64,000 nt of DNA from a virus. The notes under the pieces were generated by a model, which saw only the letters and a program-made list of their open reading frames with translations, had not been told where the DNA came from and did no database searches. The stretch lies in IMG/VR virus record IMGVR_UViG_3300033144_006696, positions 59,867 through 123,866 of that record; one strand, 5' to 3'. Positions 12,370 to 57,776 of this stretch are shown here, piece by piece; positions within the stretch are counted from its first letter, which is position 1; every line of letters begins with the position of its first letter. A program made the translations under genes and the position numbers.

Positions 12370-12734
12370 AATATAAGCATATACTCAAAACCGGAATACT
12401 CCTCTGATCTGCAATAAATGCTCTTAATAGACTTGATAAGCTTAATGTACATTTTTCTGAATCAATCACAATTCATCAAAGTTAAGATCAATATATCACA
12501 TCTTGATAAATTTGCAAATATAATCTTTGAAATTAAACTCAATTGATCAATTTTAGCTTATTTAACGATGATAAAAGTCAAATTAGATGCAATACTCTCA
12601 TTGTTTTGTAATCAAAGCGAAATGAGCAAAGATTGATCTTGATGTGCAATGAATAATCTTGAATCTGCAAAGATCAAGGATTTTTAATTCAACAAAGAAT
12701 CTTATTGCAATCAAAGCGAAGCTCCTTTCCCAGC
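12370..12734 (-). repeat. conserved cassette tail, copy A
   Basis: Shares GCTGGG...GCTTCGC, CATTGCAC and GAGTATTCCGGTTTTG blocks with 27472-27700 and 57559-57776. Confidence 0.75.
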
Positions 12735-12847
12735 AAACTTGCACAAGCAAGTTGTATAGAGTTGTAATCTTATGTTGTTGTGTATGATGTAATCATACTT
12801 AAATAATAACTTGTTATTGTTTATCAACATAAGAGTACAGCTCTTTC

Positions 12848-12904
12848 TATAGTTAGACATCTGTGTCGCACTATATTTGTCAGAGACACAGATGTCTAAC
12901 TATA
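12848..12904. repeat. 20-bp inverted repeat, cassette A
   Basis: TATAGTTAGACATCTGTGTC-17 nt-GACACAGATGTCTAACTATA. Confidence 0.9.
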
Positions 12905-12909
12905 TAAGT

Positions 12910-13573
12910 TTAAATATTTATTCTTAATTTCCTGAAACGACCATCAAAATATATTTCCTCAATTAATCCTTTGTTCATAAGCTTGATTCTATTTCGTTGA
13001 ATTGTTTTAGAAACACATGAAAGCAATTCAGCAGCTCTTGTATCAGATAATCCTGTAATACCTCCCTCAGAACCATTAGAAGCTTTATTTGGTGTTGTTG
13101 AATATGCTTTATACAACATAAGTAAAACTAATTCTATCGGACTTAATTTTTCTTCATCTTTTTTTATTCTGAATTAATTCTTCAAATATATTTCTTCTCA
13201 TGGTAAATTCTCCTGTGGAATTTTTCCAGTATATGCAAGATTTCAAAGCATAGGCTCCACATAATTTTAATTCTAACAAAATATCATGATATGGAATACC
13301 ATTATTTCTGATGAATTTTTTAAACATAATATATTGGTATTCAAAATCAGCAGATATTTTTGTAATTCCATATTTTAAAATTACAGAATAATTTATTGAT
13401 TCAGTTTCACGTTCAACAATAATATTGAAATCTTTGCAGACTTCCCTTAACTCTTGTAATGGATTTTTTGTTCTGAAGAAATTTGAATCCACAAATCTAA
13501 GCTCTTTGTGGTTTTTATTTTGGATTCTTTCGTAATAGAGATCTTCTTTGGAGGGAATTTTCTTGTTAAACAT
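12910..13573 (-). pseudogene. cassette A wHTH protein (frameshift at A7, 13159-13165)
   Basis: Removing one A joins the two track ORFs (QNKKDEEKLSPIELVLLMLYK); C-terminal LSDTRAAELLSCVSKTIQRNRIKLMNKGLIEE winged HTH. Confidence 0.6.
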
Positions 13574-13595
13574 AATTTTACCTTTTGCCACAAGT

Positions 13596-13687
13596 AGCCA
13601 TAAATGAATGTGGGAAAAGAGAATGGCAAATTCTCAGTTCAATACAAGGAGCAACCCTTATATCTATCCCCACAATTTTGGATGACT
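13596..13687 (-). ncRNA. cloverleaf leader RNA, copy A
   Basis: AGUCAU/AUGGCU and UGUGGG/CCCACA stems plus two internal hairpins; homologous to 26347 and 56563. Confidence 0.6.
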
Positions 13688-13688
13688 A

Positions 13689-13717
13689 AGTATAACAGAA
13701 GGTAAAATTTGAAGCAA
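13689..13717 (-). promoter_or_regulatory. sigma70-like promoter
   Basis: TTGCTT-17-TATACT immediately before the leader. Confidence 0.65.
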
Positions 13718-13923
13718 GATTATTTTTAAAATGTTTGAATATAATAGAAAATTAATACAAGAAAGTCAATAAGAATAATGATTTTTTCAATAAAAATTAT
13801 TAATTAAAAATCGTCTTCTAAGAGCTATTTGTTGTTCTATATATCATTATATTCATTTTCTCTAAATCATTGTTAAATCGCATATAAAGCTTATTAAATC
13901 AATAAGTATTTTCAATGAGTGTT

Positions 13924-14244
13924 TTAATGAAGATTTTTAATGATCTTTTTTGTTTCATGTTCAGGCAAAGAATATATTACATGACCATTATTTTTAAATT
14001 TATTCAAATATTCTTGTTTAACAAAAATATTTAAAATCATCTGGATATTTTTATATATGCTCTGTTTTACTTCAGAAGCCTTAAAAGATGTTAAATCAGA
14101 AATAAAATATGTTCCTTCAATATTTGGACCATGTTTTTGAATTACATTTTTAATTTTTTCAGTCTGGATTTTTTTGCATAAATCAAGTATCATCTTTCTA
14201 TTTGAATTCATAAATTTCCTTTTAATCCCCAGAGGTACATGCAT
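13924..14244 (-). CDS. hypothetical protein (possible wHTH)
   Basis: ORF; LNIFVKQEYLNK...VIYSL wing-like end. Confidence 0.45.
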   Translation of the reverse strand: MHVPLGIKRKFMNSNRKMILDLCKKIQTEKIKNVIQKHGPNIEGTYFISDLTSFKASEVKQSIYKNIQMILNIFVKQEYLNKFKNNGHVIYSLPEHETKKIIKNLH

Positions 14245-14327
14245 ACTCTGCGTCTTTATTTATATTGCACATAAGATTTGCTTATGGATGCCCTGATTGA
14301 ATGCACATGGGGAAATTATTTGAATTT

Positions 14328-14987
14328 TTACAACATTCCAGTTTCACTTAATTTTTTAATATCATTTTTATATTTTTCATATAATTTTTCAAAAATCACA
14401 GGAGTGCAAAAATAAAATTCAGCCAATAATGGCAACATCACTTCCCTTATTTGTGGATGTGATTTTTTACTGCATCTTAATTTAAATACATGCATCCATT
14501 CACGAAGATTACAAGACATCACAATACTTGTAGATAATGAATTTGGCAGCACTGAACGAGCTTCTTGTGCTGTAGCACCTCGTTTCAATAAAGTTATATA
14601 TGATTCTTCAGCTACCTGACAAGCTTGCTTCCACAATGTATATTGCATATGATTTGAAGGCCAAAAAATAGGGCGAATAACAGTAATTTCATTTCCAAAT
14701 TTATCTTTGCTGAAATTACAATATCGTGTGCTTTGGATGGCAAAACTTGATAATCTATGTCTTGTTAATTCTGCCATAACACCACGATCACAAATTATTT
14801 TGACTGTAGCAGAAGCAAATTCCAGTGGTGTTTCATGTCCATTTTTAATTAATTGTGAAATAAATTTTGAAGTATTTTCCGCAGTTGTTATTTCTGAAGC
14901 ATAGCAATTTCTACCAGCAATTTCAATTTTTTCAAGAGCATTTTCTGTAAAATCTATAATTTCAACTGATGGTGTGATAATTTTCAT
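14328..14987 (-). CDS. thyX: FAD-dependent thymidylate synthase
   Basis: GHETPLEF, ELTRHRLSSFAIQSTRY, QEARSVLP, NLREWMHVFKLR. Confidence 0.95.
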   Translation of the reverse strand: MKIITPSVEIIDFTENALEKIEIAGRNCYASEITTAENTSKFISQLIKNGHETPLEFASATVKIICDRGVMAELTRHRLSSFAIQSTRYCNFSKDKFGNEITVIRPIFWPSNHMQYTLWKQACQVAEESYITLLKRGATAQEARSVLPNSLSTSIVMSCNLREWMHVFKLRCSKKSHPQIREVMLPLLAEFYFCTPVIFEKLYEKYKNDIKKLSETGML

Positions 14988-15178
14988 TTTTTCTTTCCCC
15001 TTTTCTTTGGTTTATATTTTGCTGCCTGTTTTTTATTGAATGCTGTTTCATCTTCTTTAATAAGATCTTGGCAATTTTTACAAACATTACTTCCAGGCTC
15101 ATAATTCATTTTTGAAATTACTTGACTACAAACTTTACATTTCATATTGATGATCTTTCCAATGGAATATCTCTCCAT
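14984..15178 (-). CDS. small CxxC protein
   Basis: CKVC...CKNC; ATGA overlap with thyX; start uncertain. Confidence 0.45.
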   Translation of the reverse strand: MERYSIGKIINMKCKVCSQVISKMNYEPGSNVCKNCQDLIKEDETAFNKKQAAKYKPKKRGKKK

Positions 15179-15327: not shown

Positions 15328-15338
15328 TTTAAAATTCC

Positions 15339-16058: not shown

Positions 16059-16059
16059 T

Positions 16060-25397: not shown

Positions 25398-26168
25398 TTA
25401 TTTGTATTTTTCTTTCAATCTATTACAAAAATAAATCTGACCTAAAGGAGTAATCATTACTCTCTTTGATAATCTGACACCAAATAATGTGTTATAAGTG
25501 GTTTCTATTACATTGAAAAAGCCTTTTTCTAACATATTTTGGTAGGGTAAATTGTTATCCATGATATATTTCTGAGTTCTCATCCATTTATAAAGACGAT
25601 TCCTGCCAATACCTAAATGTTGATCTTTAACGAGTTTGGCAAATGTTTCAAAATCAATTGCATCATTAGAATTAGAAACTTGTTCTGCAAATTCTACAAG
25701 TGGTTTATCATTCTTGATTTTCTCCTCTAATGTTATTGCTTTCTTTTCTGCTTTATAATAAGCTTCTAATAATTCTAATTTAGTTCTTGGTTGAATTGAA
25801 TATGATCCTGTTTTCCTAATTGTAGGTAAAACTTCTGTTTTTATCCATTTTTTGAAAGCTTTTGCTTTGGGCATTTTACTACCAAAAATTGCCTCATATA
25901 ATCCTGATTCATTTATAACTGTTTGATTTCTATACTGATTTGAGCTGACATTCCGTAACGGCGTGTTAGCTTTTTCATCTTTATCAAGTCTTTTAGTCAT
26001 TTTATTTGTGCCAGAATATTCTAAAATATCTGCAATCTCTTTGGCAATAAACCAAGCTTCTCCGTCTTTTTCAAGAACAGTAAGTTTTCCAAATTCATTA
26101 TTTTTGAAAATTGTTAATTCTGAATTTTTATTTACTTTAATTTTTTCAATTCGTTGTAATTTTTTCAT
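25398..26168 (-). CDS. BRO-N plus ANT/KilAC antirepressor
   Basis: WFIAKEIADILEY, INESGLYEAI, EVLPTIRKTGSY, IGRNRLYKWMR, ITPLGQ. Confidence 0.9.
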   Translation of the reverse strand: MKKLQRIEKIKVNKNSELTIFKNNEFGKLTVLEKDGEAWFIAKEIADILEYSGTNKMTKRLDKDEKANTPLRNVSSNQYRNQTVINESGLYEAIFGSKMPKAKAFKKWIKTEVLPTIRKTGSYSIQPRTKLELLEAYYKAEKKAITLEEKIKNDKPLVEFAEQVSNSNDAIDFETFAKLVKDQHLGIGRNRLYKWMRTQKYIMDNNLPYQNMLEKGFFNVIETTYNTLFGVRLSKRVMITPLGQIYFCNRLKEKYK

Positions 26169-26227: not shown

Positions 26228-26263
26228 TTTATTATTTTTTCATTGATTTGAGTCGATTTTATA

Positions 26264-26292
26264 TTGACTTTTTCACTTGATTATCATAATAT
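26264..26292 (+). promoter_or_regulatory. sigma70-like promoter, duplicated at 56056
   Basis: TTGACT-17-TAATAT; near-identical block at 56056-56084. Confidence 0.7.
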
Positions 26293-26315
26293 GATTTCTC
26301 AATAAAATAAATAAC

Positions 26316-26344
26316 TTGCTTCATAATAATATCTCTGTTACACT
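26316..26344 (+). promoter_or_regulatory. cassette B promoter
   Basis: TTGCTT-17-TACACT before the leader. Confidence 0.6.
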
Positions 26345-26346
26345 TC

Positions 26347-26436
26347 AGTCATTCAAATTGTGGGAATAGATTCAGCCTTATAACCTGAATTGAAAATCGG
26401 CTTTGTTAACCGACCTTCCCACATCTTTTTAATGAC
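26347..26436 (+). ncRNA. cloverleaf leader RNA, copy B
   Basis: GUCAU/AUGAC, UGUGGGAA/UUCCCACA, AUUCAG/CUGAAU, UCGG/CCGA stems. Confidence 0.6.
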
Positions 26437-26458
26437 ACACCGTAACAAAGGTGAAAGT

Positions 26459-27073
26459 ATGAATCAGAAATTTAGTGATGAAATTTATGAAAAACTCCTC
26501 GAAGATCCTCCTTTAGCAAAATTATACCTTTCTGGCTATCCTGAACAAAAATCCAAAGTAAAGAAAATATTCCCAAAAGATTTTATTTGGTGGAAGAATA
26601 AAAAATTCAATAATATCAAAAAGAGATATAAACCTATTGAAGCCATAATTACTGAATTTAACAGTAAACCTAATAGATTATCTCACACTAAAGCTCTTAT
26701 AGAATGTGAAGGAATGGATTTAAAGCATTATGTCTTTATAAAAAATAAGAATAAGAGTAAAAGAGATAAAAGTAATCAATACAAACATCCAGCATTGTTA
26801 AAATTAAACTGTAAGGTGATGATTGCTGAAAAACTGGGCATTTCTATTTATTCAATAAAAGAATATATTGCAATGCTTGTCCGGTGCGGCATATTAAGAG
26901 TCACACATCTTGGAAATGGAAAAATATATCTTTCATCAGGTTATTGGCAATTTTATCCATGCGAAGACAAAACAACAAGATATAAAGTTCAACCATACAT
27001 GAATGAAAAAATCGGAAAAAACCTTCTTGATCCAGACAAAGCTTATCTTAGAAAACCAAAATTAAAATTTTAA
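26459..27073 (+). CDS. cassette B wHTH DNA-binding protein
   Basis: MIAEKLGISIYSIKEYIAMLVRCGILRV winged HTH; homologous to 56674-57243; start at ATG with AAGGTG SD. Confidence 0.75.
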   Translation: MNQKFSDEIYEKLLEDPPLAKLYLSGYPEQKSKVKKIFPKDFIWWKNKKFNNIKKRYKPIEAIITEFNSKPNRLSHTKALIECEGMDLKHYVFIKNKNKSKRDKSNQYKHPALLKLNCKVMIAEKLGISIYSIKEYIAMLVRCGILRVTHLGNGKIYLSSGYWQFYPCEDKTTRYKVQPYMNEKIGKNLLDPDKAYLRKPKLKF

Positions 27074-27075
27074 TT

Positions 27076-27119
27076 AAAGGGAATATTCAAACAAACTATC
27101 TTTGAATATTCCCTTTTTT
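27076..27119 (+). terminator. intrinsic terminator
   Basis: AAAGGGAATATTCAAA/TTTGAATATTCCCTTT followed by T-run. Confidence 0.8.
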
Positions 27120-27148
27120 ATAAAATTGAAATGTATTACGATGTAATT

Positions 27149-27247
27149 TCATGGGTGTGTCGGACACACCCATGATTATTCCCTAAAACACACCCATGAT
27201 TTTCTAAGAAGTGCGTCAATGCTGGATGTTGAAAATCATGGGTGTGT
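27149..27247. repeat. four ACACACCCATGA repeats in two inverted pairs, cassette B
   Basis: 27149-27175 tight pair; 27188-27247 wide pair. Confidence 0.9.
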
Positions 27248-27471
27248 TGAAGCATTTATACATTTCTTTCATCTCTTTAATGATTTCAATAAGTTACAAG
27301 GATTTTCAAAACTACTTTTTGAAGTCTCCCTATTAAAACCTACATACTTACTGTATATATATAGAATACTTCATATTTTATTTTAATTTGTTAATACTCC
27401 TTTGGAGCTAAGACGTTACACATCTTCTTTATTATCAAATTAAAAAAAAGATAAAGTATTACGCGTTGTTC

Positions 27472-27700
27472 CAACGCTGGGGAAAGAGGCTTCGCCTTGG
27501 TTGCAAGAGCTTAATCCTATTGCATATCATTACTCATTGCAAATTCATGAATATCATTGCACAACAAGATCAATTCTTGTTCATTGCAGAGCATTTCAGA
27601 AATATCCTATATATTGCTATTCAAGATTATCATTGCAATTCTAAGAACATCTTATTGCACATCAGGGGAGTATTCCGGTTTTGAACATATGCTTATATTA
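27472..27700 (+). repeat. conserved cassette tail, copy B
   Basis: High identity to 57559-57776; repeated ATTGCA; GAGTATTCCGGTTTTG. Confidence 0.8.
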
Positions 27701-27890
27701 ATACTAAACCACGTCCAATTTTATATTTGTGTTTTGGTCTACTGTATTCTAAATCAGATATTTTACGATCTATTTCTCTATTTTTCTTTGCATCTTCACA
27801 ATTACACTCAAAGTAATTTGTCATTTCATCCCAATGCTCTTTCTTTTCTTGACCACAAAAAAAGCATGTACTGCTAAAATCGTTTTCCAT
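27693..27890 (-). CDS. small Cys-containing protein
   Basis: GGAGG SD; CFFC, CNC. Confidence 0.55.
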   Translation of the reverse strand: MENDFSSTCFFCGQEKKEHWDEMTNYFECNCEDAKKNREIDRKISDLEYSRPKHKYKIGRGLVLI

Positions 27891-34064: not shown

Positions 34065-34349
34065 TTACTTTTTTAGTGTCAAAACTGCTTCAGATTTTAA
34101 TGTGATTGGTGCTATTGGTTCAGGTAATGAATCAATAGAAATACTTATTGGATTATTATTTTTCAATTTTAATGGGTATTTAATATTGCCTTTTTTCAAT
34201 TGAAATATTGCAGGAAAAAGTACTTCTGCATAATTCAAATGTAAATTGTGTGTTCTGAAACTTATAGAATCCATGCTTCTTGTAATTGTGTAATCTTGAA
34301 AATACATATTTCTCTCAACATTGATAGTAAATATATTGACATCTTTCAT
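34065..34349 (-). CDS. hypothetical protein
   Basis: AAGGA SD. Confidence 0.5.
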   Translation of the reverse strand: MKDVNIFTINVERNMYFQDYTITRSMDSISFRTHNLHLNYAEVLFPAIFQLKKGNIKYPLKLKNNNPISISIDSLPEPIAPITLKSEAVLTLKK

Positions 34350-41897: not shown

Positions 41898-42067
41898 ACC
41901 ATATAACCTTCAAGTTCTTCTTTCTCTACAAACCAAGGCTCAATTTCCACTACTAAATCATCATAGTCATTAATTACTGATTTTGGTATCCAAACATCTC
42001 TCTCATCAAAATAAAATAAAACCGCATCATCTGTTTCATGACTAACACCATCATGGCAAATTTCCAT
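41894..42067 (-). CDS. small acidic protein (57 aa)
   Basis: Read manually: HETDDAVLF...VWIPKS...EPWFVEKE. Confidence 0.65.
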   Translation of the reverse strand: MEICHDGVSHETDDAVLFYFDERDVWIPKSVINDYDDLVVEIEPWFVEKEELEGYMV

Positions 42068-44169
42068 TATTCACCCCCAAACACAGATTTATAACAAGCT
42101 AAAGTTAATCCTGCTTTCCCAGAATCAAAGAAATTATTCTCAAAATTTTCCATCATGAAAAATATATTGTCATCACCATTATTAAGCATGATAGAATTCA
42201 TGTACATTAATATTGGCCTTCTTGCTGATTCACCATCACCTTTAAAATCTTTTAGGATTTTTTTAATCTTTGCCCATTTTGTTTTTGGAGGCATATTGTA
42301 ATGTGAAAGAGTTCTGCAAATTTCAATAACCTCAGTTTCACTGGTTCCTGCTGATTTAAGGGTATTAATGGCACGTTCAGAATCATCCATATCAATTACT
42401 TGATCAAGAAGTTTCAATGCTTGCCCTGCTGAACCATCTGCAAGCTCAATGATGTGATCTCTTACATCCATTGAAATACATTCGCGTTTTTCTTTCTTTA
42501 AAATCATTCTGAAAAGTTTTTGAAGATCAGAACTTTTCAGAAATTCAAGTTCATACGTGTGACATCTACGTTTTAAAGTGGATTTTAACGCTTCTGGATT
42601 CGTTGTACACAAAATCCAATGCACATATGCAGGAGGTTCTTCAAGTGCCTTAAGTAAACTTTCCTGTGCAATTTTTGTTATAGAGTGACAATTGTGAACC
42701 ATATTTCCATTTGCAATATAAGAATGATTTTCTTTTACTTGCAAATCATAGAACTCTACAAAGCCTTGATCTCTTTCTTTATGTCCAATAATACTTGAGA
42801 AAGATTCATCATTACTTCCTCGTTTGTAAATCTCAACACTTTCCACCCTTTCCATCGAAGAAGAGACTCTTTCTTTTTGTCCAGTTTTCGTCTCTGAATA
42901 GAGTTGTGTCCCTTTCCGTCTATTTCTATTGCAATCTTTAATTTTGGATTTCCCAAATCCACTTTGTAAGAAGTTGGAATTCTTTTTTTGCGGCACCAAA
43001 CTTCCCGTTGTTTCATAGGCAAATGATCTGCTGTTTTCACTGCAACTTCTGATTGCCAAGCTAATGCAGCCATTAATAATTTCTGTGGTTCTGTCAACTG
43101 ACCATTCCCACCACGCTTTCCTTTCCAAACATGAAGAGTTCCATTTACTCTTTTTGTTTCTATTGCCTTCTCTTTCACACCAGAAAGATTCATCGGATTG
43201 TTTTCCTTCATACGTTCTGATGATTTTTGTGCAAATTCCTTGCCTTCTTTTGTTTGATAAAAATCTAAAGACTTTTTGCTTATTTTTTCCCTTGTCTCTT
43301 TTGATCGTCCAGTTTTCTTTACACAACTTTTTGCATATTTCCCTGAACAACTTTTTGAGCAAAATTTTCGTGTCTTTCGATCTGTGGTAAATATCTTTTT
43401 GCACCATAAACAACTTTTTGAATCTAAAACACTTTTTTCTTTTAATGATTCTCTGTAAAATGCTGAACAACTGTTTGAACAAAACTTTCTGCTTTTGTTC
43501 TTCGGAAAAAATTCCTTTTCGCAAAATTGACATATCTTTTTGTAAGTCATTTTGTACCTCGCATAGTGAACTTGTGTTAATCATAGGTTCACTATACCTT
43601 ACAAGAAGTATGTTTGTCAAGTCTTTTGCTTTAATCCAATTACCATCAAGATAATACTCCTGATCTTCAGAACAAAATGTACTTGACCCGTCAGATTTAT
43701 TGATTTTAATAACCCTACTTAAAGGAACTTTGTTAATAAATACTTTCTCAACAATATCAGTTCCATTTAAGTTAAAAACTGCGTCATTAACTTTAATTAA
43801 ATCAATTCTCTTTTGTCCTTCTGAAGTTGGTATTGAAGTACAAGCACTAAAGCACTCATCTAATAGAATAACTTTTTTAGTTCCTGATAAAGGTGCAAAC
43901 TTCATTGATTGAATTAATCCCCTTACCCCATCAATACCTCTATCATCAGCAGCATTTAATTCTTTAAAATCAGCATCAGAACATTTTAAAGCTCTTTTGA
44001 TAACTCTTCCCATACTGGTTTTCCCGGTCCCAGATCCCCCAGTGAATAAAAATGCAGCAGGAGGATTATCTCTTTTTAAAACAGCAGAGAGACTTTTTTT
44101 AACATCATCATTTCCAATAAAAGTTTTAAATGATTTTGGTCTGTAAAATGTTGCTAATCCTGCCATCAC
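42067..44169 (-). CDS. dnaX: clamp loader, DNA polymerase III gamma/tau-like, containing an intein
   Basis: YRPKSF, GGSGTGKT, LLDE|CH Walker B split by the intein, LLKALEEPP, LKRRC. Confidence 0.9.
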   Translation of the reverse strand: MMAGLATFYRPKSFKTFIGNDDVKKSLSAVLKRDNPPAAFLFTGGSGTGKTSMGRVIKRALKCSDADFKELNAADDRGIDGVRGLIQSMKFAPLSGTKKVILLDECFSACTSIPTSEGQKRIDLIKVNDAVFNLNGTDIVEKVFINKVPLSRVIKINKSDGSSTFCSEDQEYYLDGNWIKAKDLTNILLVRYSEPMINTSSLCEVQNDLQKDMSILRKGIFSEEQKQKVLFKQLFSILQRIIKRKKCFRFKKLFMVQKDIYHRSKDTKILLKKLFREICKKLCKENWTIKRDKGKNKQKVFRFLSNKRRQGICTKIIRTYEGKQSDESFWCEREGNRNKKSKWNSSCLERKAWWEWSVDRTTEIINGCISLAIRSCSENSRSFAYETTGSLVPQKKNSNFLQSGFGKSKIKDCNRNRRKGTQLYSETKTGQKERVSSSMERVESVEIYKRGSNDESFSSIIGHKERDQGFVEFYDLQVKENHSYIANGNMVHNCHSITKIAQESLLKALEEPPAYVHWILCTTNPEALKSTLKRRCHTYELEFLKSSDLQKLFRMILKKEKRECISMDVRDHIIELADGSAGQALKLLDQVIDMDDSERAINTLKSAGTSETEVIEICRTLSHYNMPPKTKWAKIKKILKDFKGDGESARRPILMYMNSIMLNNGDDNIFFMMENFENNFFDSGKAGLTLACYKSVFGGE
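42691..43854 (-). mobile_element. intein (388 aa) at the DE/CH site with an out-of-frame nested endonuclease
   Basis: C1 CFSACTSI; ends FYDLQVKENHSYIANGNMVHN followed by Cys+1; central region reads as off-frame sequence. Confidence 0.9.
42756..43550 (-). CDS. DUF559/Vsr-like endonuclease with zinc-ribbon repeats, nested in the +1 frame of the intein
   Basis: CxxC...FCSxSC twice; YKVDLG, IAIEIDGKGH, DKKKESLLRWKGWKVLRFTNEEV; own SD GAGGT 5 nt before ATG. Confidence 0.88.
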   Translation of the reverse strand: MTYKKICQFCEKEFFPKNKSRKFCSNSCSAFYRESLKEKSVLDSKSCLWCKKIFTTDRKTRKFCSKSCSGKYAKSCVKKTGRSKETREKISKKSLDFYQTKEGKEFAQKSSERMKENNPMNLSGVKEKAIETKRVNGTLHVWKGKRGGNGQLTEPQKLLMAALAWQSEVAVKTADHLPMKQREVWCRKKRIPTSYKVDLGNPKLKIAIEIDGKGHNSIQRRKLDKKKESLLRWKGWKVLRFTNEEVMMNLSQVLLDIKKEIKAL

Positions 44170-44920: not shown

Positions 44921-47900
44921 TTAATACATTTTATTTATTTGATCAATATCTATCTCCTCCATAAAGGCAAAATTACCTCCTTCCTCTTTTAATTTTGATA
45001 ATTCAAATTCCATTTCAATAGGAACAATTAACCATTTGAACTTATTTTTAAGATTTTTAACAATATCATTTACACCATTTAAAATAAATTTGATTTCTTC
45101 TTTATGTAGGTTAAAAATTATTGAATCGTGCACTTGGCCAGTTATTTTGGTTTTACATTTATTTTTTCTGAGGAATTTTTCAACTTCGATCAAAGTAAAT
45201 AATAATAAATGAAAACTGGTAGATTGTATAGGAAAATTGGTGCATTGCTTCTTATTCATGTATCCAGTAAATCTGAATCCAAAATATGTTTCAATAAAAC
45301 CATACCTTTGATAAGACTCAACTATGTTCTCTTTCCATTCTGTATAAACTGGAAATCTTTCTTTCCACATTTTACTTTCAATATTTTTACAATGTTCAAG
45401 GAATGAACCAGGAGTTGGTTCATATTTTATCATTTCCCCAAGTTCATATATTCCTTGACCTTCAAGCCAATGTTTTACTGTTTCACCATTTGGAAGTGTT
45501 AATCCAGCTTCTACTACATTTTCCCATAAATTCGGAGCACATGACCCAAACCAATCACCATAAAATTGAGCAAATGTCCAATTATTCTTGGCATAAAATC
45601 GAATATTTTTGATCATTTTTATTTGAGCTTTGCTATACCCAGGATAATGTTTATTCATTAGTTTAAGTGGTAATTTAAACAATTCCATTGCCAGATCACG
45701 ATGCATGTCCCCCTGAGTTACGTCAAAAATAAACGTAGGGTCTTTATGATATGCTGCCGAAGTTATTATTTCAGCACCAGAAAAATCACACTCACACAAA
45801 ACACAATTTTTTGAAGGAACTATGCCTTTTCGTACTAATGCTTTAATTTCGGGATTTCTGGCAGGAAGATTTTGGTGATTTGGCTTACTGGATGAATTAT
45901 GCACACAAATTTCATTTACAAAAAAGTTATGACAATCCTCAACTTCAATATCATAAACATCAGTTTTTTTACCTATCCACTCAATCTTAGTTATTATATG
46001 ATTTCCAGGTTTAAACTCTCCGAATTGATTTCTCCATTTCCTCTTTGAATCAATTCCATAATAATCATATAATTCAAGTAATCTATAATGGTTATGACCA
46101 AGAATATCTTTAACTTTTGCCCTTCCAAGTTTTGATAAGTCTTCAAGTCTTTGTTTTGATATAAATTTATCATGTTTATCAAAACATAAGTTTATTTTTT
46201 TCCAATTAATTTTATTAATTACAAGATATTTTTTGAATGTACTAAAATCTATTGAAAATTTATCTGCTGTTTTTTTTGGTTTGCCAGCACATTCCATTAA
46301 CATACAAACACACTGATCTTTTGATAAATTAAATGATCGTGGATTATCTTTGCCTCTTTTTATTGTGTGATCATATCTTCCTTCTTTCCATCCTTTCTTA
46401 ACTGCTTTAATATTATTTATTCTTGACTTCTTTGAACATATAGTATCTTTACTGTGTAACTTTGCATGACTTGATTTTGTATGTTTTTCAAGATTTAATG
46501 GATTATGATTAAAATGATTTTTATCTTTATGGTGAACAATGTCACCACATGTCAATTCACCTATAAAATTTTCATAAATTAATCTATGCTCTAATACGCC
46601 CTTTCCACCTTGTAAATGTCCTGTAAAATTTAATTTATCTCCACTTCTTTTACATGCTAAAGCCCTACAATTTCCATCCTTTGCTTTACTTTTTTTATAG
46701 TGTTGTTTTTTTAAGAGGTTTTGAGCTTCTACATACTTACCATTTATTAATCTAACTTTATGCTCAGGTGTGCAATCAAAATGTCCATGACCACCTTTTC
46801 TATAATAATAAACACGAATTATTTCCCTGTGTCCTGTTTTTCCTTGCCATAATACTTTTTTAATTGCAGGATTTAATTCATTATCAAAACAATATACATA
46901 ATCACCAACTTTAATGTCTTTTATTGGGATTCCTTCTGGATGTAATTCAAAATCTTTCGCCACAAGAACTTTTTCATATTCAGCAATACAGGAACGGTAA
47001 CTTACTGGAATATGAAGATCCCAAAACGGATGAATAATACCTTTATAAACTTCTCTTGCAAATTGTGCAAGATAGGTTCCTTTTGCTTTCTCAAGCTTTT
47101 TCATTTGAATAAGTTTATCAACAAATGGCAAATTTAAAGATTCAAGAGTCAATGCATCTGTTTTGTAATTATTATTTGCTGTATATACTGGAGTTTTACC
47201 AAGCACTTCATAAAAAAGTTTGCCAAGATCAGTATTTGATGTAATGTTTATTTCTTTTCCAATTTGTTCTTTAAATTTTTTTGCTTCTCTACCTTCAGTT
47301 AATTCCTTCTTTGTTATGTCAATTCTTTCTTTTAATTCAACATTTGTCTTTTTGTAATACTCAGTATTAACAGTGATACCATTGAGTTGTATAGTTCCCA
47401 TTGTACGGATTCCACGCATAAAGAACTTAAAAGCATTATGTAATTTATCCATTTTTGAAAAATAAGCTTTTTGATCATTATAAAGCATGTATGTGAAAAT
47501 ACAATCAAGACCATTATAAACCAAAAGATCTTTTAAAGGTACTTTCTCTACTGTATTAAACTCTGTGCCTTTTTTTGATTTTAGAAAAGGTGATATTGAG
47601 TCATCGTAAGGGCGAACACCATATCGTACAAATGCTTGAAACTTCAAACCTATTGCAGCAGCTCTATTATCAGTGCATTTTTGACCAATCATCGTACAAT
47701 GAATTACATTTCTTATACGAGTTCCAATTTGAATGGCTGACCACATGTCCTCAAATTTTGCATTGTGCGCTATCTTTTCAATATCTTTATGTGCAAGAAT
47801 TTCTTTCCATAATGCTTTGATTTCACTTAATTCACTTTTTGTCCAGAAAGAATTAAAATCAAATGGAAATGCATATGCTTTTTTTGCTGATATTGCAAGA

Positions 47901-48685
47901 GCTATCGTAACTATTTTGTGTCCATTACGATATGGTTTCAAACCAGTTGTCTCATAATCAAAAGCAATTTTTTGTTTTCTTTTTATGACTCGTTTTAAGA
48001 GTGATTTAACGTCGATAAAGTTTGTAAGAGTGACAACATACTTCTCAAAGTTTGTTTGCTTCTTATACGTCTTATTTAAACATGTATTAATGAGTTTTAG
48101 ATCTCGTTTAAACGTAGAATGTAGATTTTTGTCTTTATCTTTTTTAACAAGTTCCCATGGATGAAATAATGGAAGTACATAACACTTAAATTTTTCATCT
48201 GGAATTTGAAATGCACGCCAACGCATTATTTTACGATTGGAAAAGTTTTCACCAAATACAGATGTTATTGCAATACTCCCAAGTAGTACAATAAGTTTTG
48301 GTTTAAGTTTAAGAATTGTCCTTTGTATCATTGGATAACAACAAGAAATTTCTTTATGTGAAGGGATTCTATCATGTGGAGTTCTACAATTTACAGCTCC
48401 AATTTTCCAACAATCCTTATGCAGTGAAATTTTTATATGTCTTAGTTCTTTTTTTAGGAAATCACCATTTTCACCAACAAGATGAATCCCAAACTCATCT
48501 TCTTCTTGTCTTGGAGCTTCCCCAATTATCAGAATCCTTTTTACACCTTCACCAGTAACATCTAATTTAGGATGCAAACAATTTTTATATAATCCACATT
48601 TTCCACAATCAGGAGTTAATTGGTTTATATCAATTTTTTTCTTTGTTTTTTTAACTAATTCACTTTTGGTAAAAAATCCAACCAC
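44921..48685 (-). CDS. polA: family A DNA polymerase with N-terminal UDG-like and 3'-5' exonuclease domains, containing an intein
   Basis: CGKCGL, IIGEAP (UDG family 4-like); FDYETTG; RS|SSSKPNHQNLP split; CDFSGAEI; NFPIQST; QVHDSI. Confidence 0.92.
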   Translation of the reverse strand: MVGFFTKSELVKKTKKKIDINQLTPDCGKCGLYKNCLHPKLDVTGEGVKRILIIGEAPRQEEDEFGIHLVGENGDFLKKELRHIKISLHKDCWKIGAVNCRTPHDRIPSHKEISCCYPMIQRTILKLKPKLIVLLGSIAITSVFGENFSNRKIMRWRAFQIPDEKFKCYVLPLFHPWELVKKDKDKNLHSTFKRDLKLINTCLNKTYKKQTNFEKYVVTLTNFIDVKSLLKRVIKRKQKIAFDYETTGLKPYRNGHKIVTIALAISAKKAYAFPFDFNSFWTKSELSEIKALWKEILAHKDIEKIAHNAKFEDMWSAIQIGTRIRNVIHCTMIGQKCTDNRAAAIGLKFQAFVRYGVRPYDDSISPFLKSKKGTEFNTVEKVPLKDLLVYNGLDCIFTYMLYNDQKAYFSKMDKLHNAFKFFMRGIRTMGTIQLNGITVNTEYYKKTNVELKERIDITKKELTEGREAKKFKEQIGKEINITSNTDLGKLFYEVLGKTPVYTANNNYKTDALTLESLNLPFVDKLIQMKKLEKAKGTYLAQFAREVYKGIIHPFWDLHIPVSYRSCIAEYEKVLVAKDFELHPEGIPIKDIKVGDYVYCFDNELNPAIKKVLWQGKTGHREIIRVYYYRKGGHGHFDCTPEHKVRLINGKYVEAQNLLKKQHYKKSKAKDGNCRALACKRSGDKLNFTGHLQGGKGVLEHRLIYENFIGELTCGDIVHHKDKNHFNHNPLNLEKHTKSSHAKLHSKDTICSKKSRINNIKAVKKGWKEGRYDHTIKRGKDNPRSFNLSKDQCVCMLMECAGKPKKTADKFSIDFSTFKKYLVINKINWKKINLCFDKHDKFISKQRLEDLSKLGRAKVKDILGHNHYRLLELYDYYGIDSKRKWRNQFGEFKPGNHIITKIEWIGKKTDVYDIEVEDCHNFFVNEICVHNSSSKPNHQNLPARNPEIKALVRKGIVPSKNCVLCECDFSGAEIITSAAYHKDPTFIFDVTQGDMHRDLAMELFKLPLKLMNKHYPGYSKAQIKMIKNIRFYAKNNWTFAQFYGDWFGSCAPNLWENVVEAGLTLPNGETVKHWLEGQGIYELGEMIKYEPTPGSFLEHCKNIESKMWKERFPVYTEWKENIVESYQRYGFIETYFGFRFTGYMNKKQCTNFPIQSTSFHLLLFTLIEVEKFLRKNKCKTKITGQVHDSIIFNLHKEEIKFILNGVNDIVKNLKNKFKWLIVPIEMEFELSKLKEEGGNFAFMEEIDIDQINKMY
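45896..46990 (-). mobile_element. intein (365 aa) with HNH endonuclease
   Basis: C1 CIAEYEKV; CTPEH block B; EHRLIY...VHHKDKNHFNHNPLNL; VYDIEVEDCHNFFVNEICVHN followed by Ser+1. Confidence 0.92.
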
Positions 48686-53443: not shown

Positions 53444-53497
53444 TTTACTCTCTTATTAATTTATTTGTTTATTATTATATTCTTGCTGTGTCAAGAA

Positions 53498-55018: not shown

Positions 55019-55030
55019 ATTTTAGATCCT

Positions 55031-55816
55031 TTAAATATTTTCTAATAAATCTAAAATGAACTCACGGCCCTTCTCGGTCCAAACTGTAGAATGGGAGGTT
55101 TGTTTACTTACTTGTCTACCATTATTAATGATATGAGTTCGTGTATTAACCAATCCTCTATCTTGGTATTGTTGTTTAAGCAACCATTGACCACTTTGTT
55201 TAAATTGAACTCCAGACTGTTCAAGAACTGTATTTAAGGAATGAGCCGTCATTTCGACCTGTTTCGCAATCTGAGTTATTGTAAAATCTGATTTTGAATC
55301 CAGAACTTTATCATAATATTTGACTTTTGGGCGATCTTTTTTGATTTTGCGTGTTTGCTTTTTTACTACTTTTTTCTGTTTTTCAATTTCTTCAAGAGCA
55401 AGAACCTTTTGCTTTTCTGAAATGACTAACTGTTCTAATGCTTCGATATAATTAGTGGGCAATGATTCTTTTTTGTTATAATCTGTAAATGCTCTCATAA
55501 TCTGAATTGATCTTTTCACAGCAATGTCAGATCTAAGAATTGAAGAGAGTTGATTTGCTCCATATTGTGTAAAAATGTATGTAAGTGCTGGGGATTGTTG
55601 ACTTATCGCATTTTGCGATAACAGAAATTTCTGTTCAATATCAGTGACTTGGAACATAAAATCATCAGGGAATTTATTTTTATTTCTTTTTACTGCTTCA
55701 TTTAATCGTCCAGTTTTAACTTGATAAATCTTTGCAAGATCTTTTGCAAACATTCCGTCAGGTCTTCCCGGTAAACTTATGATTAAAGATTGGATTCGTT
55801 CAATTATTGCTTTCAT
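55031..55816 (-). CDS. ORF6N plus ANT/KilAC antirepressor
   Basis: DLAKIYQV, LNEAVKRNKNKFPDDFMFQ, FTQYGANQLSSIL; TITQIAK, TVWTEKGREFI. Confidence 0.9.
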   Translation of the reverse strand: MKAIIERIQSLIISLPGRPDGMFAKDLAKIYQVKTGRLNEAVKRNKNKFPDDFMFQVTDIEQKFLLSQNAISQQSPALTYIFTQYGANQLSSILRSDIAVKRSIQIMRAFTDYNKKESLPTNYIEALEQLVISEKQKVLALEEIEKQKKVVKKQTRKIKKDRPKVKYYDKVLDSKSDFTITQIAKQVEMTAHSLNTVLEQSGVQFKQSGQWLLKQQYQDRGLVNTRTHIINNGRQVSKQTSHSTVWTEKGREFILDLLENI

Positions 55817-55958
55817 TTTCTTTCTCCTTTTCTTTAATAAAATCCTTCATCATTTCAATAATTATATGAGTCATTGGTTTATCCTCTTTCAATGCAGCAA
55901 ATTTAAAGTTTCTGTGCAGCTCTCTTGGTATTAAGATAGTCATGGAAAATTTTTGCAT
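55800..55958 (-). CDS. ribbon-helix-helix regulator (52 aa)
   Basis: Read manually: MQKFSMTILIPRELHRNFKFAALKEDKPMTHIII; AAGGAG SD. Confidence 0.75.
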   Translation of the reverse strand: MQKFSMTILIPRELHRNFKFAALKEDKPMTHIIIEMMKDFIKEKEKENESNN

Positions 55959-55993
55959 TTTTGCTCCTTTATTTTTTTTGATTAAACTATTAT

Positions 55994-56023
55994 TTTATAC
56001 AATAAAAAGTTATATATTGTCAA
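55994..56023 (-). promoter_or_regulatory. sigma70-like promoter
   Basis: TTGACA-18-TATAAA. Confidence 0.6.
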
Positions 56024-56055
56024 GCTTTTTTTAATATATTTTTATTAAGTTTTTA

Positions 56056-56084
56056 TTGACTTTTTCACTTGATTATCATAAGAT
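56056..56084 (+). promoter_or_regulatory. sigma70-like promoter, duplicate of 26264
   Basis: TTGACT-17-TAAGAT. Confidence 0.7.
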
Positions 56085-56105
56085 GATTTCTCAATAAATT
56101 ACTTC

Positions 56106-56170
56106 ATGATTTTGATAGCAAAGGGTCCATGGCCCTGGGAGGATTGGTCTCCTCCCTGCTATCATAATTT
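56106..56170 (+). ncRNA. GC-rich three-way-junction leader
   Basis: UGAUAGCA/UGCUAUCA closing stem, GGGUC/GGCCC hairpin, GGGAGGA/UCCUCCC hairpin. Confidence 0.5.
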
Positions 56171-56200
56171 TCAATGACCACCATTAACCAAGGTGATATT

Positions 56201-56515
56201 ATGTTTAATCTGGATATTTATGCAGAACTTCTTGAGAAAAATCCCTCTTTAGCAAAAACATACTTTGAAGACCATTCACAACCACAAGATTTACCTACTC
56301 ATAAAGTACCTTCATTACTAAATCCTGATATTATTGAGACATTGGCTAAAAAATTTGGATGTTCAGTTGAAGAATTAACTGAAAATTTTGATTTTTTAGT
56401 TTGTGTTGAAGAATTAGAAAAATATGATATTGATGGAGTAATCCATTATGCAGTAAATGAAGATTCTGATTTTCATAATTATGTACGTGATACAGGTGAA
56501 TATCCTAAGTTATAG
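56201..56515 (+). CDS. hypothetical protein sharing its N-terminal motif with cassette proteins
   Basis: DIYAELLEKNPSLAKTY; AAGGTGA SD. Confidence 0.7.
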   Translation: MFNLDIYAELLEKNPSLAKTYFEDHSQPQDLPTHKVPSLLNPDIIETLAKKFGCSVEELTENFDFLVCVEELEKYDIDGVIHYAVNEDSDFHNYVRDTGEYPKL

Positions 56516-56531
56516 TAATTAAATAAACTTC

Positions 56532-56561
56532 TTGCTTCTTTCATAATACTTCTGTTATGCT
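56532..56561 (+). promoter_or_regulatory. cassette C promoter
   Basis: TTGCTT-18-TATGCT. Confidence 0.6.
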
Positions 56562-56562
56562 T

Positions 56563-56652
56563 AGTCATTCAAATTGTGGGAATAGATACGAAAGTCATGA
56601 GTCGTATTGAAAATTGATCCCGTCAATCAACTTTCCCACATTCTTTTATGAC
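56563..56652 (+). ncRNA. cloverleaf leader RNA, copy C
   Basis: GUCAU/AUGAC, UGUGGGAA/UUCCCACA, AUACGA/UCGUAU, UUGAU/AUCAA stems. Confidence 0.6.
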
Positions 56653-56673
56653 GGCTTTTGGCGGGAAAATATT

Positions 56674-57243
56674 ATGAATAACCAAGAAATATATCAAAAA
56701 TTCCTCGAATTAGATCCTTCCTTTGCTAAGAAATTCAAAACAGAAAACATCACAAAATCCAAAAAGAAAATCCCCTGGCCTTTAAAACACAAATGGTATC
56801 ATCATAAAAAATTCGATAGCGTCAAGAAGCGTTTCAAGTATCTTGAGACAATTCTTATTGAGATTGGTAATTCTCTATATAGATTAACCCAAAATAAATG
56901 TAAAAAACTAATATCTAATGATAAACTTACGAAAGATCATTCTTTTATTCTTAATAGAAAAAGAAAAACTCCTGCGTTTATGCGCTTAAATTGCAAATTC
57001 TTAATTGCAAAGAAAGTTGGTTGTTCTGTCCGTACTGTTGAATACATACTTAGAGCTTTAGTTCGTATAGATGCATTAAAAGTTTCAAATTTTGGAAAAG
57101 GAAAATCATATTATCATTGTGGTTATTGGGGAAAGTACAAAAACAAAGAAGATGTAATTGATTTCAAAATCCATATGTACATGAATCAAAAAGTTGCTAA
57201 AGAAATGGCTGATCCAGATAAATTCTATAAAAGAAAAATCTAA
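56674..57243 (+). CDS. cassette C wHTH DNA-binding protein
   Basis: LIAKKVGCSVRTVEYILRALVRIDALKV; homologous to 26459-27073. Confidence 0.78.
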   Translation: MNNQEIYQKFLELDPSFAKKFKTENITKSKKKIPWPLKHKWYHHKKFDSVKKRFKYLETILIEIGNSLYRLTQNKCKKLISNDKLTKDHSFILNRKRKTPAFMRLNCKFLIAKKVGCSVRTVEYILRALVRIDALKVSNFGKGKSYYHCGYWGKYKNKEDVIDFKIHMYMNQKVAKEMADPDKFYKRKI

Positions 57244-57256
57244 AATATAGCTCTAA

Positions 57257-57358
57257 TTTAAGATACGCCCGGGCGTATCTTAAATATTCCACTGGGGCGT
57301 ATCTTAAAATTCGTAAGTGATTGATTTTATTAATTTCAAGAATTTTAAGATACGCCCC
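57257..57358. repeat. four TTAAGATACGCCC repeats in two inverted pairs, cassette C
   Basis: Perfect 28-bp palindrome 57257-57284; wide pair 57294-57358 encloses an IHF consensus at 57314-57326. Confidence 0.9.
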
Positions 57359-57558
57359 AATGAAAATCAGTAATATTGATATTTAGAGTTATTTCAATAG
57401 ATTACAATAGAATTAATATTCTGTTTTGATTTTCTATGGAAAAATACATAAGAGTACCCCTTATATAGAGAGTCTTTTCCGTTCGACTTACGTTATTGTA
57501 AGCATCATGTTATCACATGTCTTTAGTCTCTCTCCAAAGTACTCTCATGCGTTGCAAA

Positions 57559-57776
57559 GCAACGCTGGGGAGAGGGGCTTCGCTTTGGTTACAAGAGCAT
57601 ATCGTTGTTCATTACACAGCAAGATTATTCATTGCACAACAAGATCAATTCTTGCTCATTGCAGAGCATTTTAGAAATATCCTATATATTGCTATTGCAT
57701 ATTAATCATTGCATATCTAAGAGCATTTATTGTAGATCAGAGGAGTATTCCGGTTTTGAGCATATACTTATATTGA
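57559..57776 (+). repeat. conserved cassette tail, copy C
   Basis: Homologous to tails A and B. Confidence 0.8.

Follow-up and report, generated by a model that had tools for sequence, protein, structure and literature searches.

Modules in which an initiator gene lies beside its own origin have been described from iteron plasmids and phages, including lambda O/ori, SPP1 G38P/oriL-oriR and RepA_N plasmids such as pSK41. The Inc18 plasmid origin (pAMbeta1 RepE/ori) has a primosome assembly site downstream. Sulfolobus chromosomes contain multiple origins, each beside its own captured initiator gene (cdc6-1, cdc6-3, whiP); capture from mobile elements is presumed for these pairs, which origin mapping has proven. 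Phage homing-endonuclease genes (I-TevI, mobE and similar) carry structured leaders that mask the ribosome-binding site.

Three cassettes (A, B and C) in the genome of an uncultured 124-kb phage resemble each of these systems in part, and no description of their layout was found in the literature. Like the lambda O/ori, SPP1 and RepA_N modules, they place the gene of a small winged-helix-type protein beside its own repeated sites, which the protein would bind, and an AT-rich stretch; the specificity, judged from sequence, appears private to the module. They differ in several respects. Sequence searches did not place their proteins in the lambda O, RepA_N or RepL families, and the sites, arranged as a palindrome plus a split pair and not as an iteron array, are found outside the gene. 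A common tail is present, three specificities occur in a single genome, and the origin activity is putative. As in pAMbeta1 RepE/ori, a promoter, regulated leader, protein gene, site directly after the stop codon and AT-rich DNA come in this order and are followed, some hundreds of bp farther along, by a generic element, whereas RepE homology is absent, the tail has no significant single-strand fold and cassette B has a terminator-like hairpin 3' of the gene. Several dispersed origin-initiator pairs (putative here) with distinct specificities and winged-helix proteins share one replicon, as in Sulfolobus; there the pairs are archaeal and chromosomal and the origins are mapped, whereas the present replicon is that of a phage, its proteins have no relation to the archaeal ones and its origins are putative. 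The leaders have the P1-UAG-P2-(U)GAA-P3 arrangement of homing-endonuclease leaders, with a P3 loop complementary to the ribosome-binding region and a promoter directly 5', but precede proteins without a nuclease domain and are part of a larger unit that also includes private sites and a tail.

Layout of the three cassettes

The window is the whole 64,000-nt stretch analysed. Self-BLAST of the cassettes against the entire 123,866-bp record identified exactly three copies, all within the window and none elsewhere, in agreement with the initial annotation. In each, a promoter and a leader RNA precede a gene for a predicted DNA-binding protein, whose stop codon is followed by copy-specific repeats, then a spacer and a common tail. 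The features are as follows.

13689..13769, minus strand: cassette A, upstream promoter-like site TTGACT-17-TATTAT (13769-13741) and cassette promoter TTGCTT-17-TATACT (boxes 13717-13712 and 13694-13689); boxes conserved in the copies and in L019, L020 and L216
13574..13689, minus strand: cassette A leader RNA, three-way junction (covariance model, covariation, loop pairing)
12910..13573, minus strand: cassette A gene, split (ORF 13573-13154 and frame 13173-12910), with a C-terminal HTH-like segment
12758..12907, minus strand: cassette A repeats, IR1 (12907-12885 / 12867-12845) and IR2 (12844-12825 / 12777-12758)
12368..12757, minus strand: cassette A tail, with short hairpin, GCTTCGCTTTGATTGCAA box, TTGCA-type repeats, an insertion of ~190 nt and conserved end GGAGTATTCCGGTTTTGA...
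26264..26344, plus strand: cassette B, upstream promoter-like site TTGACT-17-TAATAT (26264-26292) and cassette promoter TTGCTT-17-TACACT (26316-26321 and 26339-26344)
26345..26458, plus strand: cassette B leader RNA, three-way junction (covariance model, covariation, loop pairing)
26459..27073, plus strand: cassette B gene, 204-aa protein of an orphan winged-helix family (family search, AlphaFold model)
27148..27248, plus strand: putative private sites of B, four copies of (A/T)TCATGGGTGTGT
27249..27460, plus strand: cassette B spacer with AT-rich stretch (lowest 80-nt GC 0.20)
27461..27703, plus strand: cassette B tail, with hairpin GCGTTG/CAACGC, box GGCTTCGCCTTGGTTGCAAGAG, seven direct (C/T)ATTGCA repeats and conserved end
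56056..56515, plus strand: first unit of the C island, with promoter-like site (56056-84), leader-model match (56099-56206) and paralogue (56174-56515)
56532..56673, plus strand: cassette C promoter TTGCTT-18-TATGCT (56532-37 and 56556-61) and leader RNA (covariance model, covariation)
56674..57243, plus strand: gene of cassette C, encoding 189 aa; same orphan winged-helix family as B
57257..57357, plus strand: putative private sites of C, four copies of TTTAAGATACGCCC in B-like geometry
57358..57778, plus strand: cassette C spacer (lowest 80-nt GC 0.175) and, from about 57549, tail, with hairpin GCGTTGC/GCAACGC, box, CATTGCA repeats and conserved end
62813..64000, minus strand: C-terminal part of the canonical initiator, for comparison only, outside the cassettes

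The promoter and leader are ~79% identical over ~170 nt among the cassettes, and 26258-26309, upstream of B, is 94% identical to 56050-56101 in the C island. The TTGCTT-17/18-TAYRCT promoter first read from the three copies recurs in the relatives L019, L020 and L216; a consensus scan missed it, the -35 box being too weak. The proposed structured leader was confirmed as a three-way junction, its pairs being kept through compensatory changes. Covariance model matches to the leaders of A, B and C scored 121.5, 112.5 and 118.1 bits, respectively. The P3 loop of A is complementary to a stretch immediately 5' of the ribosome-binding site (UUUGCCAU with GUGGCAAA), that of B pairs beside this site (CUUUGUUA with UAACAAAG), and that of C pairs UCCCGUCAA with UUGGCGGGA. 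The leader is absent from Rfam.

The B and C proteins are 38-40% identical and thus homologues, as had been noted; they belong to a family of 26 cluster representatives found mostly on 1-3 kb contigs. The AlphaFold model of the B protein has a pLDDT of 90. A C cassette lies where it had been placed, although its island additionally holds a truncated 113-aa paralogue of the family (hhalign E 2e-5) with its own leader, a weak match to the model (25.5 bits, E 0.005).

Cassette A departs from the initial annotation, which described a gene of ~190-220 aa for a divergent homologue of B and C. A single extra A in the run 13165-13159 breaks the gene into two ORFs, whereas its relatives have one unbroken ORF of 215-220 aa. 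Homology to B and C was rejected (hhalign probability 0.5%); the protein is unrelated, and only a weak HTH signal was obtained for it.

Over 235 nt, the tails of B and C show 82% identity. Cassette A has three tail blocks in common with them, and the final 35 nt vary at 1-2 positions among the copies. The tail length first given as ~220-360 nt holds for B and C (about 220-240 nt) but not for A, where the insertion extends it to about 390 nt. The repeat motif of the tail varies between phages and is common to the cassettes within one genome. Because an unrelated protein stands between the same leader and tail in A, the tail appears to be a generic element.

Private sites and recognition helices

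Copy-specific inverted repeats after the stop codon are present in all three cassettes, as had been observed. In A, IR1 is copy-specific and IR2 is nearly identical in L216. In B, two sites form a tight palindrome, a third lies inverted 24 bp farther along, and a fourth, in direct orientation, is 87 bp from the first. All five B/C-type cassettes (B, C, L019, L020 and L022) have four sites of 13-15 nt each, differing in sequence between cassettes and constant in geometry within 1 bp (second to third site 23-24 bp, first to fourth 86-87 bp). The four copies within a cassette stay perfect and change together. Nothing supports the suggestion that an iteron half of the unit became non-coding: the palindrome-plus-split-pair geometry is fixed and unlike a lambda-like iteron array.

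Across the B/C-type cassettes, the site type follows the recognition helix. The helices SVRT and SVRS of C and L020, respectively, accompany AAGAT..CGC-type sites, and SIYS and SVSS of B and L019, respectively, accompany CA(A)TGG(G)TGT-type sites. Although L019 differs very little from L022, GGTG has become GTCG in every site copy, accompanied by a K-to-E substitution in the helix. Across the 124-kb genome, the site motifs of A, B and C are confined to the cassettes; therefore each protein would act at its own cassette only, and the differing specificities initially postulated are upheld. These data support the view that a predicted DNA-binding protein and its own sites form a self-contained pair in each cassette.

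The origin reading and its alternatives

The cassettes are interpreted here as mobile, private initiator-plus-origin modules that serve as accessory replication-origin units, with a probability of roughly 40%. Each would be a self-contained module, in which the promoter and the three-way-junction leader begin the transcript and the leader, which is of the homing-endonuclease-gene kind and has a loop able to pair with the ribosome-binding region, probably holds protein output low. The small sequence-specific protein would bind as dimers to its own array directly 3' of the gene, which in the B/C type combines a tight palindrome with a split inverted pair, and would thereby act on the adjoining spacer and tail; the tail would be read by machinery common to all cassettes. 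The modules would then fire as private origins with non-overlapping specificities beside the canonical initiator.

Several observations argue for this interpretation. The ends of the cassettes are conserved and the middles variable, the seven tail repeats run in one direction 17-30 bp apart, and the differences between A and L216 are concentrated in the HTH helix and the inner portion of IR1. The syntenic relative G001 has one cassette at the B site, whose protein is closer to that of C, and lacks one at the C site. The B-site cassette lies within a replication block (ligase, recombinase, SSB, clamp loader, polymerase, clamp, helicase). The same leader class precedes HNH and other endonuclease genes; this and the missing C cassette of G001 fit the selfish-module idea raised initially. 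The weak leads for the family all indicate initiator-type winged helices: HTH_36 is matched by 10 of 20 B/C family members below its cut-off, the B model matches DnaD-NTD (Z 5.5) and pSK41 RepA (Z 5.1) over most of its length, and RepL and RepA_N are Atlas leads.

Other findings weigh against it. No Pfam family reached the gathering score for the cassette proteins (the HTH_36 and FaeA matches to B are below threshold), so the lambda-O-type kinship originally suggested is not retained; RepA_N and RepL gave no match. An initiator-like fold was likewise not substantiated, since Z scores of about 5 equal those of ordinary MarR, Fur and Crp-type regulators, and Foldseek found no significant match; the winged-helix matches are generic, and the likeness to DnaD-NTD and RepA is weak. 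The AT-rich stretches listed initially rank between the 2nd and 12th percentiles of an AT-rich genome (B at the 5.6th, and therefore not exceptional) and are not among its 25 least stable windows. No factor reading the tail was found, GC skew has no inflection at the cassettes, cumulative skew following gene strand, and the A gene is frameshifted. The separate main initiator annotated at 62813-64000 is genuine, with a bona fide N-terminal HTH_36 domain and in-gene 24-bp tandem repeats across the assembly junction, and its homologue comes after the helicase in G001; as this initiator and a UvsX-like recombinase are already present, extra origins would be unneeded.

The proteins may instead be local transcription switches, activating or repressing only at the neighbouring non-coding DNA, so that the cassette is a regulator-plus-target RNA unit; this is unlikely, at about half the weight of the origin reading. 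The generic fold is as close to MarR, Fur, IscR and Crp-type regulators as to initiators, and the hairpin 5' of the tail box keeps its pairing despite sequence change. The target would be a transcript from the spacer or tail, or the promoter-like site and long T-run hairpin that follow the tails of A and C. Cassette B has neither beyond its tail because a converging gene ends inside it, the tails fold no better as RNA than shuffled sequence (z -0.6 to -1.7), no conserved promoter was found between sites and tail, and ~200 bp separate the sites from the tail, a long distance for an activator of the sigma-70 type.

Equally unlikely on its own, and compatible with the origin reading, is a nuclease-free selfish element that spreads like a homing-endonuclease gene through tight DNA binding without cutting. 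The bound protein would be a fork barrier or recombination hotspot that biases gene conversion under recombination-dependent replication or, alternatively, the element would be an exclusion or immunity determinant during mixed infections. In its favour are the leader class, otherwise tied to homing endonucleases and found on selfish genes in the same genome (34098, 39582) and in other phages, and the syntenic relative without a C cassette; protein types are shuffled between sites. The rapid joint shift of helix and sites, the abundance of HNH genes and inteins in a genome with a UvsX-like recombinase, and the short contigs, expected from repeats, point the same way. Against it, neither a nuclease domain nor conserved catalytic residues were found in the proteins, a barrier in the element's own genome favours its loss over gain, and no such mechanism is established in phages.

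It is improbable that the cassettes are decaying remnants, functionless duplicates of mobile genes whose ends are kept alike by inter-copy recombination. The frameshift in A, the truncated paralogue adjoining C and the variable tail length among relatives would suit such decay, but the reading frames of B, C and their relatives are intact (34-50% identity), the motifs are conserved and the fold is confidently predicted, the site copies are all perfect, and compensatory changes preserve the leader pairs. A centromere-like tether or packaging-recognition region is very improbable: short same-direction repeat arrays recall type II and III centromeres as well as certain pac sites, and a TubR fragment is among the fold matches (Z 4.5), but no partition NTPase or terminase gene adjoins any cassette, three units of differing specificity have no evident packaging use, and why a lytic-type 124-kb phage would need partition is not obvious.

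The cassettes thus look like accessory, possibly selfish, replication-origin units, which may spread or be swapped between related phages via recombination in their conserved ends.

Cassette architecture and genomic setting

Three cassettes of one layout (A, B and C) are present in the window, each composed in order of a promoter, a leader RNA, a protein gene, private repeats or sites after the stop codon, a spacer and a tail. A separate initiator gene lies outside them.

13717 to 12370, minus strand: cassette A
26316-27700, plus strand: cassette B
56532-57776, plus strand: cassette C
62813-64000, minus strand, across the assembly junction to genome positions 1-435: main initiator, with an N-terminal HTH_36 domain and in-gene repeats

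BLAST of A, B and C against the whole record bore out the three-copy claim of the initial annotation, giving exactly three copies with conserved leader and tail. The promoter and leader share ~79% identity across ~170 nt, and the copy-specific part of each cassette is its middle (gene, repeats and spacer). The promoter hexamers (TTGCTT/TAYRCT, with TG two bases before the -10) recur in L019 and L020, two relatives with a B/C-type cassette, and in the A-type relative L216. A second promoter-like site of the TTGACT-17-TAATAT type is located ~50 nt upstream in A and B; at C, it precedes an extra small gene. When IMG/VR was scanned for exact patterns of the tail end, tail box and leader core, most of the matches were chance occurrences within coding sequence.

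The 123,866-bp IMG/VR virus record has a GC content of 31% and a 114-bp direct terminal overlap, so the assembly is circular and closes on itself. No tRNA gene or Rfam family was detected in the 64,000-nt window, which spans bases 59867-123866 of the record. Genes are encoded almost throughout on the minus strand from 9219 to 64000. This block includes genes for a ligase, UvsX-like recombinase, SSB, clamp loader, Pol III-type polymerase, sliding clamp and DnaB-like helicase, as well as several HNH genes and intein-size insertions. The large insertions in two of its products are probably inteins.

44921-48685: polymerase, 1254 aa, large internal insertion with HNH hits
42067-44169: clamp loader, 700 aa, large internal insertion

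Relatives of the helicase (40-81% identity) are common on ~100-kb metagenome contigs. In GenBank phages, neither the cassette DNA nor the B/C protein family nor the helicase has a relative, and the phage lineage is therefore uncultured yet widespread.

The main initiator predicted in the initial annotation is supported by its HTH_36 domain (35 bits, above the cut-off) and by tandem 24-bp repeats (TAIENNSS units) within the gene. Its locus is probably the main origin, and in the syntenic relative G001 a homologue of this gene follows the helicase. With a separate main initiator, the phage would be independent of the cassettes for an origin.

The cassette neighbours are KilAC/Bro-N/ORF6N/AntA proteins, HNH nucleases, methyltransferases and small unknown ORFs. 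The AntA (10492-11424), Bro-N+KilAC (25398-26168) and ORF6N+KilAC (55031-55816) genes adjoin cassettes A, B and C, respectively. A Bro-N-like gene is located upstream of the L020 cassette, and the upstream region of L216 resembles that of B. Neighbours of the KilAC-type, Bro-N, ORF6N or AntA kind thus occur at A, B, C and L020, and at L216 by this likeness, but not at L019.

Cassette proteins and their private sites

The B (204 aa) and C (189 aa) proteins share 38-40% identity. An exhaustive profile search placed them in a family of only 26 cluster representatives, none of them named, and no relative was found in the genome collection. Invariance across the family is limited to P, W and S residues. 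At E up to 1, no Pfam family exceeded its cut-off for the A, B or C protein, and a scan of the 20-member alignment returned generic HTH families only. The HTH_36 (PF13730) scores are 16 bits for B and 12 for C, against 35 for the main initiator and a curated cut-off of 25; weak HTH_36 matches in 10 of the 20 family members (best E 0.0033) and FaeA matches in three are all sub-threshold. The lambda-O-type initiator identity first proposed for the three proteins was not upheld, as these scans assigned none of them to an initiator family. RepL and RepA_N appear as weak Atlas leads for the B/C family, and the RepA_N (PF06970) and RepL (PF05732) profiles found nothing across the genome at E up to 10. 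No nuclease domain (HNH, GIY-YIG, LAGLIDADG, PD-(D/E)xK or similar) was found in the cassette proteins in Pfam or PHROGs.

An AlphaFold model of the B/C family reached pLDDT 90 with the 20-sequence alignment (38 with a three-sequence input). In the modelled fold, a helical N-terminal region bearing the invariant WP....W is accompanied by a winged helix and a long beta hairpin. Foldseek returned no match at E up to 0.001. VIA-align gave Z scores of 5.7-5.0 for the RecJ C-terminus, DnaD-NTD, SarX, PerR, IscR and pSK41 RepA; the scores for 8ojj (5.5 over 92 residues), 4pta (5.1 over 105) and 2vn2 (4.9) tie with those of SarX, PerR and IscR. The modelled evidence amounts to a tie between initiator-type and regulator-type winged helices. 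A role of each cassette as a local transcription switch is possible. A wider regulon is ruled out, as the site motifs are unique to their cassettes.

The A protein, described earlier as a divergent homologue of B and C, belongs to a different family (hhalign probability 0.5%). It is a single ORF of 215-220 aa in the relatives P0149, P0151 and L216, whereas here the gene is split by one extra A within a run of seven (13165-13159). The split gene may be a pseudogene or reflect a homopolymer assembly error or slippage. Contigs of 1-3 kb carry most members of both cassette protein families (P0003-P0024 and P0149-P0159), although P0149 lies on one of 18 kb. Repeated cassette ends would break short-read assemblies, and such contigs fit the presence of several cassette copies per genome elsewhere.

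The C island contains one additional unit of the B/C family.

56056-56515: 113-aa truncated paralogue unit, with a promoter-like site of its own; the cassette leader model also matches it weakly

Its ORF (56174-56515) encodes a truncated B/C paralogue (hhalign E 2e-5), which may modulate the C protein since it lacks both the WP....W segment and the beta hairpin.

Cassettes B and C each contain four perfect or near-perfect copies of a private 13-14-nt motif, and A contains one inverted-repeat pair. In B and C, two copies form a tight palindrome, an inverted copy follows 24 bp on and a direct copy lies 87 bp from the first. The same layout is found within 1 bp, in other sequences, in L019, L020 and L022 (a further B/C-type relative), so that site geometry is conserved and site sequence differs among the five B/C-type cassettes. 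The recognition helices SVRT (C) and SVRS (L020) accompany AAGAT..CGC-type sites, and SIYS (B) and SVSS (L019) accompany CA(A)TGG(G)TGT-type sites. Grouped by the spacer that separates the third site from the fourth, B goes with L020 and C with L019 instead. In these comparisons, site type goes with the recognition helix and not with overall kinship. L019 and L022 are near-identical, but GGTG is changed to GTCG in all site copies together with a K-to-E change in the helix. Differences between A and L216 fall mostly within the HTH helix and the inner part of the first inverted repeat (IR1), and the second inverted repeat is nearly identical in the two. When up to 2 mismatches were allowed, the only sequences elsewhere in the genome that resembled the A, B or C motifs were two single near-matches to the B motif. 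Taken together, the conserved geometry, the helix-linked site type and the uniqueness of the motifs amount to good, though indirect, evidence that the protein of each cassette binds the adjacent sites of that cassette and acts at no other place. Whatever their function, the five B/C-type cassettes offer matched protein-site pairs in which fold and geometry are constant and sequence varies. Such a set lends itself to work on how winged helices change their target recognition, and it may also yield orthogonal DNA-binding parts.

Leader RNA, spacer and tail

RNAalifold of the leaders of five cassettes gave a three-way junction with the order P1, UAG, P2, (U)GAA, P3. The P1 helix is invariant (GUGGGAA/UUCCCAC), and pairing in the P2 and P3 helices is kept by compensatory changes despite differing sequence. 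Two-sided changes occur in 9 of 22 pairs among the five sequences. In an alignment of 13 matches fitted to a covariance model, two rows of which are antisense matches, 93.5% of cells pair and 20 of the 22 pairs show two-sided changes; none of 500 shuffles reached the observed level, and slid controls gave 37-58%. The model built from the five cassette leaders aligned the L216 leader at 56 bits and also matched the leader of the 113-aa gene in the C island. It further matched leaders that precede HNH/AP2-type endonuclease genes, both in other phages and in a Marvinbryantia MAG. Two further leaders with this layout lie in this genome outside the window.

Genome 34098-34164: three-way-junction leader before a 617-aa zinc-finger nuclease-like gene
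Genome 39582-39649: three-way-junction leader before a 177-aa HNH/AP2 gene

The leader pattern gave 80 matches in 596 Gb of genomes, of which one was real (the Marvinbryantia MAG, with an endonuclease-type leader). No Rfam family covered either the leader or the tail at E up to 5. Inspection of the junction sequences ruled out a hammerhead or a tRNA-like reading of the leader. Here, a homing-endonuclease-type leader heads non-nuclease genes. The P3 loop in A, B, C, L019 and L020 is complementary over 6-9 nt to a stretch ending at or next to the ribosome-binding purine tract, but non-cognate loop/site pairs score nearly as high. This contrast is weak, and a putative translational brake is proposed by analogy with homing-endonuclease leaders.

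The spacer contains the AT-rich stretch reported earlier, which is nevertheless ordinary for this genome: its lowest 80-nt GC (0.175-0.225) corresponds to the 2nd to 12th genome percentile, and none of these stretches ranks with the 25 least stable windows.

The B and C tails share 82% identity, A shares three blocks with them and the three copies are almost the same over the final 35 nt. The tail starts with a 5-8-bp hairpin whose pairing is kept with different sequences, followed by a box, GGCTTCGCYTTGGTTRCAAGAG, in this phage and L020 (looser in A, L019 and L216). Short repeats in one direction, 17-30 bp apart, are (C/T)ATTGCA here, ATCCTTG in L020 and GTTGCA in L019. The tail elements are unique to the cassettes within the genome. 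The L216 tail is cut to ~80 nt by a converging gene, so the hairpin and box may be the tail core. A structured RNA was ruled out, as folding on both strands was no better than for shuffles, and coding sequence was ruled out because B and C differ in length by a number of nucleotides not divisible by 3 and share no frame. The tail region is longer and GC-richer in L019 (5780-6320) and L022 (700-1080), with a duplicated AAGGGCAAG..TTGTTGCAA unit; one copy is missing from L022 through a ~110-nt deletion, and an HU-like gene converges on the region.

Directly after two of the tails lies a further promoter-like site.

12361-12205, minus strand: promoter-like site (TTGATT-17-TATATT / TAAGAT) after the A tail
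57780-57940, plus strand: promoter-like site (TTGATT-17-TATATT / TAAGAT) after the C tail

It is followed in both by a long hairpin (ATGGCAACTTATTTTATC ... GATAAAATAAGTTGCCAT) and a T-run. The unit in C may be a small RNA, as no gene follows it, and that in A may be an attenuator, as a 107-aa gene follows.

Mobility and possible function as origin modules

The syntenic G001 record (61.6 kb, estimated 53% complete, 33-73% protein identity to this phage) contains one cassette, at the B site, and its protein, with 42% identity to C and 34% to B, is nearer to C. In G001, helicase and initiator lie ~470 bp apart at the C site, compared with 7.8 kb here. A survey of 79 related phage loci found no B/C-family member within 10 kb of the helicase. 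Three features point to a selfish, mobile element: the homing-endonuclease-type leader, the presence or absence of cassettes among relatives, and the rapid coupled change of helix and sites. This fits the selfish part of the initial annotation and is compatible with a private origin as well as with a nuclease-free exclusion or recombination role.

The cassettes fit best as accessory replication-origin modules, with a probability of roughly 40%. This reading draws on the self-contained pair of protein and private sites, a tail that accompanies proteins of two unrelated families, the location within the replication block and the initiator-type leads, weak as they are. Counted against it are the ordinary AT-rich stretch, a GC skew that follows gene strand only, the lack of initiator family membership and the tied fold evidence. 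As in iteron-type origins, repeated predicted initiator-binding sites adjoin the gene. Unlike the lambda-O-type initiator, whose origin repeats are in-gene, the cassettes carry their sites after the stop codon. The cassettes differ from partition systems (ParB/ParR/TubR with a centromere) in that no motor NTPase gene adjoins them, and from homing endonucleases in that their proteins have no nuclease domain.

A more speculative and rather unlikely extension of the origin reading joins it with mobility. Each cassette would be an orthogonal initiator-origin pair replicating only its carrier genome; its specificity would diversify fast and so escape use by co-infecting relatives; and these private origins would spread between phages as nuclease-free selfish elements, with leader RNA control as in homing endonucleases. 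If true, lytic phages would carry mobile replication modules of a new class.

If the cassettes fire as origins, this phage would have several origins at dispersed positions, and each would be served by a separate initiator with a distinct specificity; the arrangement would be a bacterial-virus counterpart of the captured origins in archaeal chromosomes. Replication specificity would then evolve like an immunity or incompatibility determinant.
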